Of a stretch of DNA of 43,206 nucleotides, positions 29,933 to 38,226 are shown piece after piece (the first letter of the stretch is position 1; every line of letters starts with the position of its first letter). The DNA is from an archaeon. Its GTDB lineage: Archaea > Asgardarchaeota > Thorarchaeia > Thorarchaeales > Thorarchaeaceae. The notes under the pieces were generated by a model. That model was not told the DNA's origin and searched no databases. It was given only the letters and a program-made list of their open reading frames with translations. The DNA lies in contig JAJRWI010000026.1 of the NCBI GenBank assembly GCA_024276825.1, forward strand, positions 1 to 43,206, written 5' to 3'. Made by a program: the position numbers and the translations under genes.

Positions 29933-30551
29933 GGCGTCTTTTTTCTCCTTTATCACCAAAGCAGCCCTTGCGAAGTTACACATTACCTTCAGATACAAGG
30001 CGCTTCATTAGTCTTGTACCAATGATTGACTTACTTCTATTCTTCGTGTCATGATCATCTGCTGTAATCCATGCATTAAGTGATAATGTGAATCCTTTCC
30101 AAAGATTGCATGGTGCTGATATAAAGGGCTTAATCCCTCTATTCATCCACATAATTGGTTGTTAATGAATATAAGCTTTTGTCATTAATTGGAACGCTTA
30201 AATATTGTCGCATTCTATTTCATGTGTGAAATGCAAAATTCGCATTCATAGACCTGAAGAAAGCGCGATTTCAAAATATATTTGCGTTCCCTTTGTATCG
30301 ACTTAGGAATAAGACTGTCCTGCTATCATGCCTTTTCCATCTGACATTTGAATGCATGAATATTGTTGAATTATGAATTGCGAGTAATACTCTCACAAAA
30401 TCACTAAATAATTGTGAGGAGTGTAAATGGTCTCATCGGAAACAATAGCCTGAAACATGCACACTGCTGCTCGTGGGCGGACAGGACCAAAATGTCAAAC
30501 TTTGTCCAATTCACAATGAATGGTCAACAGTAATTAGAATTAAGCTGTATT

Positions 30552-30567
30552 GAAAACAGAAAGGGAA
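30552..30567 (-). terminator. Possible archaeal pyrimidine/U-rich terminator after the SECIS
   Basis: UUCCCUUUCUGUUUUC follows the hairpin directly, at the end of the operon. Confidence 0.35.
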
Positions 30568-30664
30568 GGAAGGAGAGTGCGATGACGCACCCGTGCAAGG
30601 TTGTCCAGCGTGGCCCTTCACTTTAAGCCACACCTTCATCCGCCGCCAGTCACCATCTCCTTCC
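30568..30664 (-). promoter_or_regulatory. Eukaryote-type SECIS element (selenocysteine insertion sequence) of vhuU
   Basis: mRNA reads AUGAA-GGUGUGGCUU-AAAGUGAA-GGGCCACGCU-GGAC. It has an AUGA/GA kink-turn quartet, a 10-bp helix II (with G-U pairs) and unpaired AAA 11 nt after AUGA. Lower helices: GCGG(C)GG/CCUUGC, UGGUGAC/GUCAUCG and GGAAGGAGA/UCUCCUUCC. Confidence 0.88.
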
Positions 30665-30788
30665 GTGCCAACTCGCGCCCCTCATCATCAACAATGACAA
30701 GATGAGCAGCGCATGATAGTCAGCAGTCATAGCACCGCACAACCATCTCGAGGAGGTTGAGCAGGCCTTCCGGAATTTCGTCAGTCAT
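30636..30788 (-). CDS. vhuU: Selenocysteine-containing [NiFeSe]-hydrogenase small peptide subunit (VhuU)
   Basis: Missed by the ORF track. Manual translation: MTDEIPEGLLNLLEMVVRCYDC-U(TGA 30722-30720)-LSCAAHLVIVDDEGRELARKEMVTGGG*. This is the L2 motif missing from the upstream large subunit. AAGGTG SD upstream and SECIS downstream. Confidence 0.93.
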
Positions 30789-30826
30789 TATTTACACCTT
30801 GTTTGTTTTGTTTATAATCCTCCTGT

Positions 30827-32143
30827 TTACGTCTTCACCAGTGGATCTGGTAGTTTGAGTTTTTCATGTCCCTTCTGTTCAAACACGAATCGTGCTGCAT
30901 CCATGAGGGACTTTTCAATTCCTGCAATGTTGTTGTTAGTAGCAACAATCAGGTTTGCTTTTGTGATGATTCCTTTCTCGTCGCACTCGTAGTTATGTAG
31001 AAGTGTTCCTCGTGGGGCTTCAACGATTCCCACGCCATTGCCAGCCTTAGGCTCGACATCTGAGAGTTTTACATCAGTGCTTACAATCTCGGGATCCTCA
31101 AGCAGAGTCTTGATCCATTCTGCTGCCTGAACCATCTCTATAATTCTGGCCCAATGATAGGCAAATGTGTGATGGCTTGGGCGTCCAACAACTTCACGCA
31201 TCTCCTTAAGTGCTTCATTTGCGAGAGGGGTAGCCATTTCATCAGCCACATTACATCTTGCTAGTGTATTTGCCCGCCAGATGCCATCCGGATAACCAGC
31301 AGGCTTGTAATAGATGTGAGTAGCGTAAGAATGTCCTGGAATGTGTTCGCCATAGTAGTTTGTGTAGTCCTTGGGTTCAAATTCAGCAACGGTCTTTCCA
31401 TCTGGATCCATTACTCGAACCTTGCCATCATAAATATCCAGCTTGCCATCATTCACAAGGCCAATGTAGTATGTGGGAGTCACAGCAACTTTGGTCACCA
31501 CATCGATATACATGTTAACAACATTCTTTGCTAACTCGACGGTCTTATTGATGTTTTCAAGCATCTCTGGGACTTTCTTTAACCATTCATCACGTTCATC
31601 CTCCTTCAAGGGTGACAGCATCCCACCTGGAATGGCAGTTGTCGGATGAATGGCCTTTGCTCCCACAGTTCTACAGAGCTCCTGACCAAATTCCATCAGC
31701 TTGATTGCTTGAACTGCCACATCGGGCAAGTGCTTCAGGACCGCAGCAACATTTCTCACTGAAGGATCTGCAAATGGTCCAAAGACAAAGTCTGGTGCTG
31801 CAAGTGCATAGAAATGAATTGCATGACTTGAGAGTTGCTTGGCCTCAATCAACAAACGTCGAAGTTTGACAGCAGCAGGAGGTGGAGTCACATCCCAAGC
31901 CGCTTCAACAGCCTTTACTGAGGCAAGATGATGTGGAATAGGACAAATACCGCAGATTCTCGGAGTGATTCTTGGGGCCTCCTCCATTGGACGTCCCTCA
32001 AGAAACTTCTCAAAGAATCTGGTTGAACCCACATTAAATTGCACATCTTTCACCTTACCATCCGAGCCAAGTTTGATGGTAAGTGCTCCATGTCCTTCAA
32101 GACGAGTGACTGGGTCTACTCTGATCACTTTATCATTTGGCAT
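30827..32143 (-). CDS. mvhA: F420-non-reducing (group 3c) hydrogenase large subunit, C-terminally split (VhuA-type)
   Basis: DPVTRLEGH, L1 motif RICGICPIPH, EAPRGTLLH, NLIVATNNN; ends without DPCxxC. Start set at the second ATG, 9 nt after GGAGG. Confidence 0.95.
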   Translation of the reverse strand: MPNDKVIRVDPVTRLEGHGALTIKLGSDGKVKDVQFNVGSTRFFEKFLEGRPMEEAPRITPRICGICPIPHHLASVKAVEAAWDVTPPPAAVKLRRLLIEAKQLSSHAIHFYALAAPDFVFGPFADPSVRNVAAVLKHLPDVAVQAIKLMEFGQELCRTVGAKAIHPTTAIPGGMLSPLKEDERDEWLKKVPEMLENINKTVELAKNVVNMYIDVVTKVAVTPTYYIGLVNDGKLDIYDGKVRVMDPDGKTVAEFEPKDYTNYYGEHIPGHSYATHIYYKPAGYPDGIWRANTLARCNVADEMATPLANEALKEMREVVGRPSHHTFAYHWARIIEMVQAAEWIKTLLEDPEIVSTDVKLSDVEPKAGNGVGIVEAPRGTLLHNYECDEKGIITKANLIVATNNNIAGIEKSLMDAARFVFEQKGHEKLKLPDPLVKT

Positions 32144-33065
32144 TCTTTGCATCCTCCCGCTTTATCCGCATATTGCCCAGATGGCTTGATGGATAGTCGA
32201 ATCTCCAGAAGTAGCCAATTGGATCCGGGACTTGTTCTTTTAATTCATCTGGAAGTAATGGTGCATATGAGCCAAGCATTGAGATTGATGCTGCACCATG
32301 GTCTTGAGTGATTGGTGGAGGCGGCCCAAAACATCCTCGACAAGTCACCCCCTTGTTCACACATTGGCCCTCACATAGCCCCCACGTAGCAGAGCCCAGA
32401 CAGATGTATCCTTGTTCCAAAAGACATCTATCAGGATCCGCATTGCCCTTGAAGGGTCTTAAAATCTCGGGAACTGGTGTTTCTTTCTTTTCTCGAGAGC
32501 AATAATGGCAGACCGTATGAGGGGGTAGTTCGATCTCCTTGCCCTCAATCAATGAAGTGAGAGCTGTGAGAATTAGTGAGGAGGTTGGCGGGCAACCTGG
32601 CAAATATACATCAAAATCGACATAATGACGGTTTGGTCGAACAATCGATTCAATGGGGGGAACATTCTCGCTAGGAACTTCGCCATCACTGAATGTCTTG
32701 TTGTTGCGAAACTTGACATCATAGCAATCCTCAATATCATAGAAGTTGGCCATGCCAGGAATTCCACCGAAGCATGAGCATGTACCAAAAGCAATGAGAA
32801 TCTTGCACTTGGCTCTCAATGTCTTCAGAAGATGAACATCTTCTTCAGTTCTAGCCATCCCTTCATAGACACCAACAGCAATTGATTTGTCGGGATATGA
32901 TTCAAGATCGCTGAGCTTGTAATCAACCACAGCTTGCCAATACTTGATATCAAGTAGTGGTAAAACATCAGCGAGTTTTAGATGAATATCAATAAGACTC
33001 TGAAAACATCCCCAACAACTTGAACCTTGTCCTAATGCAATAGAAACCTGCTCGGTCAAAATCAT
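32133..33065 (-). CDS. mvhG: F420-non-reducing hydrogenase small subunit
   Basis: CWGC, AFGTCSCFGGIPG, LPGCPP, CHYC, CLLEQGYICLG..C...C..CRGCFGP. Confidence 0.94.
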   Translation of the reverse strand: MILTEQVSIALGQGSSCWGCFQSLIDIHLKLADVLPLLDIKYWQAVVDYKLSDLESYPDKSIAVGVYEGMARTEEDVHLLKTLRAKCKILIAFGTCSCFGGIPGMANFYDIEDCYDVKFRNNKTFSDGEVPSENVPPIESIVRPNRHYVDFDVYLPGCPPTSSLILTALTSLIEGKEIELPPHTVCHYCSREKKETPVPEILRPFKGNADPDRCLLEQGYICLGSATWGLCEGQCVNKGVTCRGCFGPPPPITQDHGAASISMLGSYAPLLPDELKEQVPDPIGYFWRFDYPSSHLGNMRIKREDAKNAK

Positions 33066-33292
33066 TCCTCCTTTGATGCAAAGATTAGTTCTTGTTCACT
33101 CTCATGGATATCAACCTGGCCCCACCTAAGCATACCCAGCAAATTCCATAGAACGAGAGGCTTGTCCAGATTCAATTTCGATGCGATTTGCGACACTGAT
33201 AATTTTTCATCCTTCAAAAGCCCAAGTATTCTAGTCCTTTGCTTTTCAGTTTCACGTCTATTTTGATAGAAGAAATCAGTATAATGTTTCAT
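33062..33292 (-). CDS. Small winged-HTH protein inside the mvh operon
   Basis: 76 aa with ATGA overlaps on both sides; ILGLLKDEKLSVSQIASKLNLDKPLVLWNLLGMLRWGQV. Confidence 0.82.
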   Translation of the reverse strand: MKHYTDFFYQNRRETEKQRTRILGLLKDEKLSVSQIASKLNLDKPLVLWNLLGMLRWGQVDIHESEQELIFASKEE

Positions 33293-33732
33293 TCCCAGGA
33301 CCTCCTGATAGGACCAGCTTCCTTTACTTGCTCAACAAGTGTTCTAACACCATCTGCAAAAATCTGGGCCTCTGATGCGCTTGCCCACTGCAATCTAATT
33401 CTTCGTGGATCTATTCCCGCTTGCTCAATGGCTTTTTCGAAAAGGGCCCATCTGGCTCTCATCTTTAGATTTCCTGAAGTATAATGGCAATCACCTGGAT
33501 GACAACCAGAAACTAGGACTCCATCAGCACCAAGGTCTAATGCGGCAAGAATAAATTCAATGTCAATTCTGCCTGTGCAATTCACTCGTATAATTCTTGC
33601 ATTTGGTGGATATTGAATTCGGCTAGTTCCTGCCAGATCTGCTCCAGCGTAGCTGCACCAGTTGCAGCAAAAGGCCAGTATCTTGGGTTCCCATTCTTTC
33701 TCAGTTGTTTGTGTTTGAGCTTCTGTGCTCAT
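33289..33732 (-). CDS. mvhD: MvhD [2Fe-2S] subunit
   Basis: FCCNWCSYAGAD, NCTGRID, GCHPGDCHY, WASASEA; all-Cys form. Confidence 0.96.
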   Translation of the reverse strand: MSTEAQTQTTEKEWEPKILAFCCNWCSYAGADLAGTSRIQYPPNARIIRVNCTGRIDIEFILAALDLGADGVLVSGCHPGDCHYTSGNLKMRARWALFEKAIEQAGIDPRRIRLQWASASEAQIFADGVRTLVEQVKEAGPIRRSWE

Positions 33733-35480
33733 TGCACGCTACCTCCTTCACTCTCAGTCATAGGGCTGAGATATGCTTGTATCATTGATATGATCTGATC
33801 GTCTGTTGAATGCATCATGACAATTGCATTACTTGGACAAGCCGCAGCACATGTACCGCAGCCATGACATTTGGCTTCAGTAACAAGGGCTACTGGTGGA
33901 TCATGTGATTCATCCATTGAGATTGCACCATATGGACATGCAGTGATACATGTGTGGCAAGATGAGCAGAGGTCAGAAAGCACATGAGAAACAGTCGATT
34001 CAATCTCCACTTCGCCCCTTGCCATCAAGGCTACTGCTTTAGCGGCCGCTCCGCTTGCATCAATAACAGACTCAGAGGCATTCTTTGCAGCCTGTGCTGT
34101 TCCAGCAATCATAATTCCTGCAGTATGTGTTGTGACAGGAGCAAGTTTGATGTGCTCTGGATTAAAGAACCCATCAGCGCTTCTTGTCAAACTAAACAGC
34201 TTGGCGGTCTCCTCAATATCTTCTGGAGGAATCATTGCAGTAGCCAAGACAAGGATGTCAGGCTGGAAAATTAATTCCTCATCTGCAAATACATCCTCCC
34301 ATTTGATTGTAATTTTGCCATCGATAATCTCTACCGTGGGTTCTTTCTCAATCGGGTATCTTGAGAATATAACGAACTTTGATCGAGCTAATCGATGAAT
34401 ATCTTCATGCCCCTTGCCATATGTTCGAATGCTCTTGTATAGAATTAGAACTTCATCCATTTTATCACGCAAGTCTGATGCAGCCTTAGCAACTGCAGAG
34501 CAGCAATATCGTGAACAGTGTTCATGTCCCTTTTTGCCATACTCACGCGAACCCACGCATCCAATGAATGCAATTTTCTTTGCTTTTGTTTTATCACTGG
34601 GCTTTAGAAGGTCTTTTCGTGGGGGCATCATTTGTAATTCAGCAAGAGTGACGATGTCAGGATGCTCCCCATAACCAAAGTACCCGTATGGTTTGAAGGG
34701 AGTAAAACCAGTAGTCACGATGACTGCTCCAATATCAAACTCTTTCTGGTCGCCAGTCTTGATGTTCTCAATTGTAGCCTTGAAGTTGCCAATATAACCA
34801 TCAAACTCACGAACTTTTGAGCCCGTCAGTATTGTTATTCGTTTGTGTTTTCTGGCCTTTTCGATCATTGGATTAAGAACTTCAGGACCACTCTTATCAT
34901 CTGGAAACATATGAGTCCAATGTCTGACATGGCCACCCAGTTCACTGTCTTTGTCAACCAGAACAACTTCAAACCCTCTGTTAGCAATATCAAGTGCTGC
35001 CCTTAGTCCAGCAATTCCAGCACCTACAATCAATGTTCTTGGCTCAACCTTCACAGTCTTCAGTGGAAGTGCTTCTAGCCTCGCTGCCCTAGCCACTGAC
35101 ATTCTTACTAGATCTATTGCCTTTTCTGTTGCGGCGCCGGGCTCCCTCATATGACACCAGCTGACATGCTCTCGAAGATTTGCTTGTTCATACAGATATC
35201 TGTTAAGACCAGCCTCTTCAACGACTTTTCTAAATGTTGGCTCATGCATTCTGGGACTACAACTTGCAACAACAACCCGATTAAGGTTGTATTCTTTCAC
35301 TTTGTCTTTTATTAATTGTTGACCCGAATCAGCACACATGAACATCTCATCAGTTGAGAAGACCACATGCGGAAACTCTGCAGCAACCTTGGCTACTTTC
35401 TTAACATCTACAGTTCCAGCAATATTATGACCGCAATGGCAGATGAATACTCCAATTCTTGGTTCTTCAGCATCTGACAT
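33729..35480 (-). CDS. hdrA: HdrA-like flavoprotein with N-terminal and C-terminal Fe-S domains but no inserted ferredoxin domain
   Basis: Start moved to ATG 35480 (MSDAEEPRIGVFICHCG), just after the upstream stop. GAGIAG, CVGSR..CSRYCC, C-terminal CSSCHTC..CP and CHGCGTCAAACP. Confidence 0.92.
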   Translation of the reverse strand: MSDAEEPRIGVFICHCGHNIAGTVDVKKVAKVAAEFPHVVFSTDEMFMCADSGQQLIKDKVKEYNLNRVVVASCSPRMHEPTFRKVVEEAGLNRYLYEQANLREHVSWCHMREPGAATEKAIDLVRMSVARAARLEALPLKTVKVEPRTLIVGAGIAGLRAALDIANRGFEVVLVDKDSELGGHVRHWTHMFPDDKSGPEVLNPMIEKARKHKRITILTGSKVREFDGYIGNFKATIENIKTGDQKEFDIGAVIVTTGFTPFKPYGYFGYGEHPDIVTLAELQMMPPRKDLLKPSDKTKAKKIAFIGCVGSREYGKKGHEHCSRYCCSAVAKAASDLRDKMDEVLILYKSIRTYGKGHEDIHRLARSKFVIFSRYPIEKEPTVEIIDGKITIKWEDVFADEELIFQPDILVLATAMIPPEDIEETAKLFSLTRSADGFFNPEHIKLAPVTTHTAGIMIAGTAQAAKNASESVIDASGAAAKAVALMARGEVEIESTVSHVLSDLCSSCHTCITACPYGAISMDESHDPPVALVTEAKCHGCGTCAAACPSNAIVMMHSTDDQIISMIQAYLSPMTESEGGSVQ

Positions 35481-35481
35481 C

Positions 35482-38226
35482 TCATTCACGCTCCTTTGAC
35501 AGAACAATTGTGGCATGCATTGCTGCTGCACTGCCGGCAGTTACACTGTCAGGAATGTCTTTTGGACTATCACTGCATCCACACACATATACTCCTTTGA
35601 CACTCGAATCTACAGGATCAACGAATTGGTCTAAGACTTGAATATATCCATCCTCGTATAATCTCAAGTTCAATCCCTTCATGAATGGCTCAAGTCCTTC
35701 TGCAGGTATTATTCCTGGGCTTAGGATCACCATGTCATGTCTTGCCTCTCCAAGTCTGTCATTCACAATGTCCTCATAACTCACAATGAGATCTTGTGTA
35801 TGAGGATCTTCATCTATCTGACCAACTCGCCCTCTTATGAAATGCACACCAAACCGTCTTTTTGCCATTTGATAGAACTCTTCGAAGCCCTTTCCAAAAG
35901 ACCTCACATCCGTGTAATAGATTGTGACATCAATGTCAGGATGATGTTCTTTTGCCATGACAGCGTTTTTGATTGCATACATGCAGCATATACGCGAGCA
36001 ATAAGGTACGCCCATCTTTACATCTCTAGAACCAACGCATTGAACAAATGCAATTGACTTAGGGACCTTTCCGTCTGAGAGACGCACGAGATGTCCATGT
36101 GTTGGTCCAGCCGCATTGATCAAACGTTCGAACTGCATTGCATGAATGACATTATAATGTATACCAAAGCCAAGGCGTTCATACCTGCTCACATCGAACA
36201 GTTTGTATCCGGTTGCAATCACAATCGCGCCAACGTTCAGTTCAACGACTTCATCATTCATTGAGTGATCGATTGCCTCGCGTGTACAGGCTTTTACACA
36301 TTGCTCGCACTCACAACAAATACCGCATTCTATGCAGCGACCGGCCTCTTCCAGCACCTCTTCTTCGCTATAGCCTTGCTCAATTTCTTTGAATGAATCA
36401 ACTCTTATTGTTGGCTTCAATTTCTTTGGATGCACTTTCTCTTGCTTGGGAAATCTTGCCTTTGGAATATCTTCAGAGGGAATCTCTTTGAATTCCACTG
36501 GTCTTCCTTCAAACATATCTTGGCCCTGCAAGAATCGATGTATTGACTCAGCAGCCTCATGACCATGCGCAACAGCGTCAACCACAAGGCCACCACCAGT
36601 AACCACATCACCACCAGCAAACACGCAGGGATTACTTGTCTGATATGTTATTGGATCGACCACAGGCGTTCCCCAGGATGTCGTTTTCAATTCAGTATGA
36701 GGACCATCCTCACCAACGCGTTGTCCTATTGCAATTATGACATTATCAAGTTGGATGGTAAATTCTGAATCAGGAATTGGAATTGGACGTCTACGTCCTG
36801 ATTCATCAGGTTCGCCAAGTCGCATTCTGATACATTTGATGCCAGCCACTTTGTTCTTCATGGTCAGGATCTCAACAGGGTTTGCGAGTAGGACCAGTTC
36901 AATACCCTCATCCTCAGCATCACTAATCTCGCTCTTGATAGCAGGCATCTCTGCACGAGACCTTCTATAAATGATGAATACCTTATAGGCTCCTAGGCGC
37001 TTGGCTACTCGAGCTGCATCAATTGCCGCATTACCTCCTCCAATGACCGCAACATAGTTGCCAACTTCAACTTTTTCGCCACTATTCACTCGATCCAGAA
37101 ACTCAAGCGCATGAAAGACTCCCTCGGCATCCTCACCATCAACCTTTAGACGGCTTGAAACTGGAGCGCCAATTCCTAGAAACACTGCACTGAATCCCTT
37201 TTCCAAGAGGCTCTCTACAGACCTGATCTTCTTATTGAATTTGAATTTTACACCCAAATCTTCAACCATGGAGATCTCTTCATCCAGAATTTCTCGTGGT
37301 AGACGATACTCAGGAATGCCATATCGGAGCAATCCGCCAGGTTTCTCTCTTGCCTCGAAGACTGTCACTGGATATCCTAGCTTGGCCAGTTTCTCGGCAC
37401 ATGCAATACCTGCAGGACCAGCTCCAATAACAGCAACCTTCTTTTTCTTATCGGGCTTGACTGGTGTGGGAGTGTAAGTTCCCTGTTCACGCTCATAATC
37501 AGCAAGCCATCTGTGACTGTCTCGGATGTTAATTGGATTATCAATTAGACCTCGTTCACATTTCTCTTCACAGGGGGCAGGACAAACACGGCCCAGAGTC
37601 CCAGGGAATGGAATCGATCTTCTTACAATCTCAAGAGCATCATCATATTTGTGTTCTCGAATTAATGCCAAAAAGCCCTGACCATTAACATGAGCAGGAC
37701 AATTGATTCTGCATGCAGGATGTCCGCGCTTATCAATGGTATGAGTATTTGGTGTTGCTTGTGGGAACGGAACATAGATGGCCTTTCTAAATCCTAGTCC
37801 TTGGTCAAACTCGTTTGGGACTTCTGTGGGACATACTGGGACGCAGTCACCACAACCAGAACATTTTTCCAGATCAACATATCGTGCTTTCTTCAACACT
37901 TTGACTTTAAAATCGCCCGCTTTCCCCTTGATGTCTTTTACTTCAGAATATGTCAATAGTTCTATATTTGGATGATGAGCGACTTCACTCAATTTTGGTG
38001 TCAATATACAGGCACTGCAGTCAAGAGTGGGAAATGTCTTGTCCAGCATTGCCATTTTTCCGCCAATGCTAGAGGTCTTTTCAACAAGAAAGACCTTGAA
38101 TCCTTGATTTGCTATGTCCAGAGCAGCTTGCATTCCGGCCACTCCGCCACCCACAACGAGCGCACTACCTGGATCTCCCATTTTTACACTGCTGATCTTC
38201 TGGGCACTTTTTTCGACAGTCAACAT
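35482..38226 (-). CDS. hdrA: HdrA/HdrL-type protein lacking the N- and C-terminal Fe-S domains, with inserted GltD-like NAD(P)H module
   Basis: GGGVAG at about residue 26, DKTFPTLDCSAC, CRINCPAH..GRVCPAPCEEKC..GAGPAG..GGGNAAIDAAR..YRRSR, FERL, CVGSR..CSRICC, PKDIPDSV. Confidence 0.93.
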   Translation of the reverse strand: MLTVEKSAQKISSVKMGDPGSALVVGGGVAGMQAALDIANQGFKVFLVEKTSSIGGKMAMLDKTFPTLDCSACILTPKLSEVAHHPNIELLTYSEVKDIKGKAGDFKVKVLKKARYVDLEKCSGCGDCVPVCPTEVPNEFDQGLGFRKAIYVPFPQATPNTHTIDKRGHPACRINCPAHVNGQGFLALIREHKYDDALEIVRRSIPFPGTLGRVCPAPCEEKCERGLIDNPINIRDSHRWLADYEREQGTYTPTPVKPDKKKKVAVIGAGPAGIACAEKLAKLGYPVTVFEAREKPGGLLRYGIPEYRLPREILDEEISMVEDLGVKFKFNKKIRSVESLLEKGFSAVFLGIGAPVSSRLKVDGEDAEGVFHALEFLDRVNSGEKVEVGNYVAVIGGGNAAIDAARVAKRLGAYKVFIIYRRSRAEMPAIKSEISDAEDEGIELVLLANPVEILTMKNKVAGIKCIRMRLGEPDESGRRRPIPIPDSEFTIQLDNVIIAIGQRVGEDGPHTELKTTSWGTPVVDPITYQTSNPCVFAGGDVVTGGGLVVDAVAHGHEAAESIHRFLQGQDMFEGRPVEFKEIPSEDIPKARFPKQEKVHPKKLKPTIRVDSFKEIEQGYSEEEVLEEAGRCIECGICCECEQCVKACTREAIDHSMNDEVVELNVGAIVIATGYKLFDVSRYERLGFGIHYNVIHAMQFERLINAAGPTHGHLVRLSDGKVPKSIAFVQCVGSRDVKMGVPYCSRICCMYAIKNAVMAKEHHPDIDVTIYYTDVRSFGKGFEEFYQMAKRRFGVHFIRGRVGQIDEDPHTQDLIVSYEDIVNDRLGEARHDMVILSPGIIPAEGLEPFMKGLNLRLYEDGYIQVLDQFVDPVDSSVKGVYVCGCSDSPKDIPDSVTAGSAAAMHATIVLSKERE

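Follow-up and report, generated by a model that had tools for sequence, protein, structure and literature searches.

The minus strand of the analysed Asgard DNA (a contig of 43,206 nucleotides; hereafter, the window) carries a gene, vhuU, which is almost certainly genuine and expressed as a selenoprotein in a Thorarchaeota-like archaeon, where it completes a split group-3c [NiFeSe] hydrogenase. The conclusion rests on the gene structure, its conservation, the SECIS fold and the selenocysteine (Sec) machinery of the genome. Asgard vhuU as a gene type, as well as a eukaryote-like SECIS element that holds its stop codon, have already been published; what had gone unremarked is limited to the Cys-Sec dyad, which is invariant, and to the conserved CUA next to the Sec codon. 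Ordinary gene callers overlook vhuU, and its recovery gives the hydrogenase of the operon back a catalytic subunit. Without it, the enzyme would be taken for inactive, and metabolic reconstructions of Asgard archaea would be distorted with respect to H2 cycling and Hdr-linked electron bifurcation.

A hydrogenase large subunit in two pieces

The translation of mvhA contains the N-terminal L1 motif RICGIC and ends with ...LPDPLVKT followed by TAA; the C-terminal L2 motif DPCxxCxxH is absent from it. The missing piece is encoded separately, by the short vhuU frame that follows 38 nt after the large-subunit gene and begins with the ATG at 30788 (Table 1). Within it, an in-frame UGA takes the place of the leading Cys in UxxCxxH, and LSC-AAH follows codon 23. 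If cleavage takes place after His29, mature VhuU comprises residues 1-29 and the extension residues 30-50. The length of 21 aa past His29 is conserved, and the extension sets the spacing from the Sec UGA to the stop UGA at 84 nt (first base to first base). A HycI-family maturation protease gene is located elsewhere in the genome (C47:1834-2154), and vhuU itself is present in one copy.

Table 1. Features of the vhuU locus and its SECIS element in the window
Feature	Position	Strand	Details and evidence
hdrA-like flavoprotein, Cys form	33729..35531	-	TGA stop; immediately upstream of mvhD; Pfam, translation
mvhD, all-Cys form	33289..33732	-	no in-frame TGA; Pfam PF02662, E 4e-51; translation
mvhG, hydrogenase small subunit	32133..33065	-	Pfam PF01058, E 4e-21
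mvhA/vhuA, [NiFe(Se)] large subunit, 441 aa	30827..32152	-	Pfam PF00374, E 9e-30
Intergenic spacer mvhA/vhuU	30789..30826	-	38 nt; Shine-Dalgarno-like AGGAGG and AAGGTG; direct read
vhuU	30636..30788	-	50 sense codons including Sec codon 23, plus TGA stop; translation, homologous ORFs
L2 nickel-binding motif R-C19-Y-D-C22-U23-L-S-C26-A-A-H29	30702..30737	-	vhuU residues 18-29
vhuU codon 19 (Cys)	30734..30732	-	TGC
vhuU codon 22 (Cys)	30725..30723	-	TGC
vhuU codon 23 (Sec)	30722..30720	-	TGA
vhuU His29 codon	30704..30702	-	
vhuU C-terminal extension, 21 residues	30639..30701	-	LVIVDDEG...TGGG; homologous to FrhA extension in 3zfs_A
vhuU stop	30638..30636	-	TGA
SECIS, Loki-type (eukaryote-like)	30582..30649	-	covariation, RNAalifold, covariance model R1
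SECIS lower helix (6 bp)	30649-30644 with 30587-82	-	5' arm in final vhuU codons
SECIS AUGA core	30639-30636	-	includes vhuU stop UGA; context GG-AUGA-A
SECIS upper helix	30634-30627 with 30614-30607	-	GGUGUGGC / GCCACGCU
SECIS apical loop		-	12 nt, UUAAAGUGAAGG
SECIS G-GA	30606-30604	-	3' of upper helix
SECIS second small hairpin	~30600-30589	-	3' side

The first-pass annotation had described this arrangement exactly, namely mvhA without L2, the 38-nt gap, the 50-codon frame and the 21-aa extension. Its reading of the frame as a VhuU-type selenoprotein that completes a split [NiFeSe] group-3c hydrogenase, with Sec at the first Cys of L2, is borne out by the conservation (TGA at codon 23 in 130/130 loci), the SECIS element and the Sec machinery described below. 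It had also called the gene invisible to annotation. This is true for gene callers; the family itself, however, has been published for Asgard archaea, Thorarchaeia included.

All genes of the operon are on the minus strand and follow the order 914-aa GltD/HdrA-like gene, hdrA-like gene, mvhD, small HTH gene, mvhG, mvhA and vhuU. Past vhuU, there is a gap of ~640 nt and then hdrC, hdrC, hdrB and an 1121-aa gene. The adjacent mvhD and mvhG, the hdrABC-type genes and a large subunit closest to MvhA/VhuA assign the enzyme to the Mvh-type, Hdr-linked group 3c. The translations of HdrA and MvhD of the operon have no in-frame TGA, and both are Cys forms; VhuU is the sole selenoprotein of the operon. 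The best PDB match of MvhA is VhuA of M. maripaludis (9sfi_g, E 7e-139), ranked above MvhA of M. thermolithotrophicus (5odc_F) and 9sw2_F. The MvhA of the window shares 77-85% identity with proteins from Candidatus Thorarchaeota MAGs. The HTH gene between mvhD and mvhG (33062-33292) encodes 76 aa with a weak, ArsR-like Pfam match, and its start and stop codons overlap those of its neighbours. The ~640-nt region between vhuU and hdrC (29999-30635) contains no ORF longer than 60 aa and has no Rfam match.

By analogy with the methanococcal Vhu enzyme, Sec would be inserted at codon 23, the extension would be cleaved and VhuU would take part in nickel ligation. The group-3c (Mvh/Vhu-type, Hdr-associated) large subunit would then be assembled from two products, with MvhA (441 aa) bringing the first metal-binding Cys pair and VhuU bringing the second, the first member of which is Sec. 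After Ni-Fe insertion, a HycI-type protease presumably cuts the 21-residue tail past His29, and the 29-residue VhuU peptide would stay on MvhA as its C-terminal segment. Sec23 would be the terminal Ni ligand and Cys26 the bridging ligand.

SECIS element and selenocysteine machinery

The layout of lokiSECIS, the Asgard eukaryote-like SECIS, is found at the 3' end of vhuU. In the window, the upper helix consists of eight Watson-Crick/GU pairs and a basal A.G juxtaposition. When the nine positions of this helix were followed through 68 aligned homologues, 91% of the cells were paired, compared with 17-48% in slid controls; all 9/9 pairs showed compensatory double changes, which amounted to 186 cells versus 56 in shuffles. 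RNAalifold, run on 69 sequences, recovered the lower helix, the upper helix and the second hairpin, with double changes in 15/17 pairs. Rfam at gathering thresholds matched zero families in the whole window. A pyrimidine-rich tract located 3' of the SECIS (30575-30545) resembles an archaeal oligo-T terminator region.

The double role of the AUGA core as a stop codon was reported by Mariotti et al. in 2016 for VhuU.1 of Lokiarchaeota (PMC4989117). Like VhuU.1, the window gene is an ORF of ~50 codons that follows a large subunit gene lacking its end, contains a single Sec and has its stop UGA in the AUGA core; its SECIS shares with lokiSECIS the AUGA, a helix of ~9 bp, an A-rich loop with G as its last base, and GA/AA. 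The differences are that the window copy is of the Thorarchaeota type, with a GC-rich upper helix and G-GA, and that its helix has 8 pairs and the A.G juxtaposition below a loop of 12 nt, whereas the published Loki consensus has 9 pairs and an 11-nt loop.

In the proposed mechanism, tRNA-Sec(UCA) and SelB would decode the codon-23 UGA as Sec under the direction of the SECIS starting 84 nt downstream. The stop UGA, being inside the AUGA core of the SECIS at zero spacing, would lead to termination and not to recoding. A weak-termination context, together with a distance of 84 or 96 nt to the SECIS, possibly lets the first UGA be recoded, but not the second one within the SECIS core; this corresponds to the minimal-distance model that has been proposed in PMC4989117.

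The assembly of the host genome (2.9 Mb, 82 contigs) is 98% complete. A lack of Sec machinery, together with Cys in all close orthologues, would have refuted the interpretation according to the first-pass annotation; the machinery was found. The genome contains tRNA-Sec (62.6 bits; identified by ARAGORN as SeC with anticodon TCA), SepSecS (E 1e-138), SelB (297 bits), SelD with one in-frame TGA of its own, and a PSTK-like kinase (E 2e-42; 145 bits, under the NCBIfam cut-off of 290 bits). Four of these genes form a cluster of ~4.3 kb (C4:30452-34676), with the PSTK-like gene on the plus strand and tRNA-Sec, SepSecS and SelB on the minus strand. The components of the archaeal/eukaryal Sec pathway (tRNA-Sec, PSTK, SepSecS, SelB and SelD) are thus represented, with a PSTK match that is below the cut-off and a gene that adjoins those of tRNA-Sec and SepSecS.

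A covariance model built from the VhuU SECIS (R1) was run against the same genome and returned the vhuU site only, with no second SECIS; SelD must therefore use a different SECIS form. SPS of Lokiarchaeota likewise has a different SECIS form (PMC4989117). A hand-written AUGA-helix-GA pattern found seven sites in the genome, vhuU included, and the other six have no obvious TGA-containing selenoprotein ORF upstream. The other SECIS elements of the genome, including that of SelD, were thus not found with R1 or with this pattern.

A coding hairpin around the Sec UGA (30690-30760) was also considered. It folds in the window (-21.5 kcal/mol, z -2.5); the 68 homologues show no covariation in it, with 3 double-change cells versus 30 expected from shuffles. 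Every measure is at or below the shuffles, and this hairpin was treated as a by-product of the conserved codons.

Conservation of the Sec codon and the neighbouring cysteines

From species-representative genomes, 80 related mvhA loci were retrieved; 69 of them contain vhuU in the retrieved locus, downstream of or near mvhA, which together with the window gives 70. A further 60 genome and metagenome loci bring the set to 130. The records belong to Thor-, Loki/Prometheo-, Hel-, Hod-, Odin-, Hermod- and Borr-archaea. Codon 23 is TGA in 130/130 loci (70/70 in the first set) and codon 22 is TGY in 130/130. Codon 19 is TGY in 129/130 (69/70 in the first set), the exception being Asn in a Helarchaeota record. 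All 60 additional copies read RC[YF]DCU with TGA. TGC and TGT vary synonymously at the Cys codons, and there is neither TGY at codon 23 nor TGA at codons 19 or 22 in any of the 130 loci. The tabulation of these three codons, suggested by the first-pass annotation, thus gives TGA fixed at codon 23 only. By these counts, Asgard VhuU as a family normally reads RC-Y-D-C-U, and the arrangement of codons 19, 22 and 23, judged from its sequence pattern, is a fixed state under purifying selection.

The surroundings of the motif are conserved as well. In the first set, the stop is TGA in 70/70 loci, with the ATGA context in 68/70 and A as the following base in 65/70 (T or G in the remainder); the extension is 21 aa long in 57 loci and 25 aa long in 13. 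In a phylum scan of 400 genomes, 293 match vhuU at E <= 1e-3, and the best 150 of these 293 matches have exactly one in-frame TGA each; the weak matches presumably stem from unsplit enzymes of the Cys type and their L2 motifs, as with the second hydrogenase of the host genome. The context of the Sec UGA differs from that of the stop: the base after it is C in 67/68 sequences, and the next codon is CUA (Leu) in 64/68 homologues (in the window, codon 24, 30717-30719). CUA is kept despite strong differences in GC content between Thor- and Loki-type genomes, while other Leu codons vary freely. This suggests that UGA-CUA is a nucleotide-level context constraint for Sec decoding.

The two cysteines preceding Sec23 were compared with 150 diverse group-3 large-subunit representatives, 82 of which retain the L2 motif. 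At position -4, these 82 have Ala in 43 cases, Cys in 13 and Ser in 11, and RC[YF]DPC occurs in 13/82; Cys19 is therefore unremarkable. At position -1, Pro is found in 80, Leu in two and Cys in none. Asgard VhuU has Cys22 in place of the Pro of the canonical signature D-P-C/U-x-x-C-x-x-H/R in 130/130 loci, and Pro is not required for VhuU. The pattern becomes CxxC-U-xxC (C19-x-x-C22-U23-x-x-C26). Of the pair of cysteines that the first-pass annotation had considered extra, it is the one at -1, replacing Pro, that stands out, as the Cys at -4 is not unusual in group 3. In this comparison, Cys22 beside Sec23 is an Asgard-specific and Asgard-invariant replacement of a near-invariant Pro, and it is neither polymorphic nor transitional.

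Two groups of large subunits in the comparison set end near this position. Some representatives end with ...RAYDP; they are presumably truncated at a Sec codon and, if so, Pro is kept there too. The distant representatives P0006 and P0025 end with ...RCFGW and ...RCFNW, where L2 should begin; they, too, may be variants cut short at a Sec codon, but with different residues in front of it. The phylum and metagenome scans for their relatives returned only ~45%-identical Asgard relatives.

The Asgard-wide change from Pro to Cys beside a Ni-ligating Sec could be a functional innovation. Cys22 and Cys19, as a CxxC, could act as a resolving or protective thiol pair for Sec23 through a reversible Se-S and then S-S bond. 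Such a selenenylsulfide/disulfide switch would protect, re-reduce or gate the [NiFeSe] site, whether by shielding or re-reducing oxidised Sec or by relaying protons or switching redox state at the Ni site. We regard this as a tentative idea that is rather unlikely in any of its variants, and that of an Asgard-wide innovation of this kind as equally speculative. The idea draws on the invariance of the Cys at -1 (130/130), as opposed to Pro in 80/82 other group-3 large subunits. No conserved partner cysteine for Cys19 or Cys22 was found in MvhA, whose universally conserved cysteines are the two of L1; a partner would have to come from VhuU itself. The Asp preceding position -1 belongs to the active-site canopy in Hyd-1 of E. 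coli, which would place position -1 in the second coordination sphere. In thioredoxin reductase, adjacent Cys and Sec residues are redox-active. A Cys-Sec relay has been proposed in HdrA of M. maripaludis (PMC13518236). Nevertheless, the conservation could reflect a structural need of the Asgard VhuU fold, and the host organisms are strict anaerobes. Should the Cys-Sec switch be real, the Asgard Mvh/Vhu would be a new [NiFe] active-site variant and not a plain copy of the methanococcal one. A literature search found no mention of the Pro-to-Cys change or of the CxxC-U-xxC motif; two Asgard selenoproteome papers and a soil-Asgard paper describe VhuU only as UxxC-type.

The first-pass annotation had suggested that Cys19 and Cys22 possibly represent an intermediate of a Sec/Cys exchange, in either direction, given that two additional thiols flank Sec where methanococcal VhuU has Ala and Pro. 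This is very improbable: among the 130 loci there are no DCC, DUC or DUU alleles, Asgard lineages that diverged deeply share one fixed arrangement in spite of the synonymous TGC/TGT turnover, and enzymes of the Cys type often have Cys at -4 as well. Even less credible, to the point of being negligible, is a broken pseudogene in which the TGA is a nonsense mutation or a sequencing error: standard gene calling does end at this TGA, with only tiny pieces on either side of it, but such an origin is excluded by the conservation of the same TGA across independent assemblies (130/130), and the frame, the UxxCxxH motif and the extension persist past it, followed by a covarying SECIS in a genome with the full Sec machinery. 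A fixed selenoprotein gene thus remains the preferred reading of vhuU.

Comparison with known hydrogenases

The vhuU product can be aligned to the VhuU chain 9sfi_M, which has 27 residues, and to the C-terminal ends of other group-3 hydrogenases of known structure. The structure 9SFI is the Hdr-Vhu-Fwd assembly of Methanococcus maripaludis (PMC13518236). VhuA and VhuU of M. maripaludis and M. voltae (PDB 9SFI/9T1S; PMC13518236) resemble the window proteins in the split large subunit, the Sec-xx-Cys-xx-His motif and a peptide that completes the Ni site, and the methanococcal Hdr-Vhu is similarly associated with MvhD/G and Hdr. The split is at a homologous site, as had been supposed: VhuA residues 4-417 align to MvhA residues 10-424, and VhuU residues 2-27 of 9sfi align to residues 5-30 of the window VhuU. 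The supposed substitution of two residues by Cys is confirmed too, since chain 9sfi_M reads RAYDP-U-YSCAAH, with Ala and Pro where the window VhuU has Cys and Cys. The methanococcal SECIS is of the archaeal GAA_A type, whereas that of the window is of the AUGA/GA type; in addition, the window host, unlike Methanococcus, is not a methanogen.

The VhuU of Lokiarchaeota is described as a protein of ~50 aa with a single Sec and a SECIS (Mariotti et al., 2016; PMC4989117). The statement in the first-pass annotation that it has multiple Sec residues is contradicted by this report, in which the multi-Sec proteins are VhuD, HdrA and PrxL, with two Sec in VhuD and up to four in HdrA. The Loki-type loci share the motif RC[YF]DCULSCAAH with the window. 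HdrA and MvhD of Lokiarchaeota are Sec forms that share one SECIS, whereas those of the window operon are Cys forms. According to Huang et al. (2024; PMC11227280), the FrhA/MvhA/VhuU selenoprotein family is present in 68% of Sec-using Asgard genomes, and these include Thorarchaeia.

The periplasmic [NiFeSe] hydrogenases of Desulfovibrio vulgaris Hildenborough and Desulfomicrobium baculatum (2WPN, 1CC1) are among the homologues of MvhA (E ~1e-28). In these enzymes, the terminal Ni ligand is a Sec that replaces the first Cys in the C-terminal motif; however, they belong to group 1, their large subunit is not split, the motif reads DPU, and the SECIS is bacterial and lies within the coding sequence. 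The second hydrogenase of the host genome (C2:11424-12722) has the same overall C-terminal motif as MvhA/VhuU, in the canonical form RAYDPCISCSAH, but it is only 28% identical, is encoded by a single unsplit ORF without Sec and is of the Cys type.

Differences in the position of vhuU relative to mvhA can be noted among the Asgard loci. Five Thorarchaeota loci (L051, L052, L053, L055 and L057) contain a paralogous truncated mvhA of 438 aa, ~70% identical and ending with ...LPDPMIK, and have no vhuU within the ~7-kb locus. Genomes with this vhuU-less mvhA also have a second mvhA with vhuU (pairs L045/L053, L049/L052 and L050/L057), and one small peptide may serve both in trans, or another may have its gene at a different place. 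In seven loci of the Loki/Prometheoarchaeota type (L068, L076, L085, L094, L095, L096 and L098), vhuU is located ~1.5 kb downstream of mvhA, with at least one gene between them.
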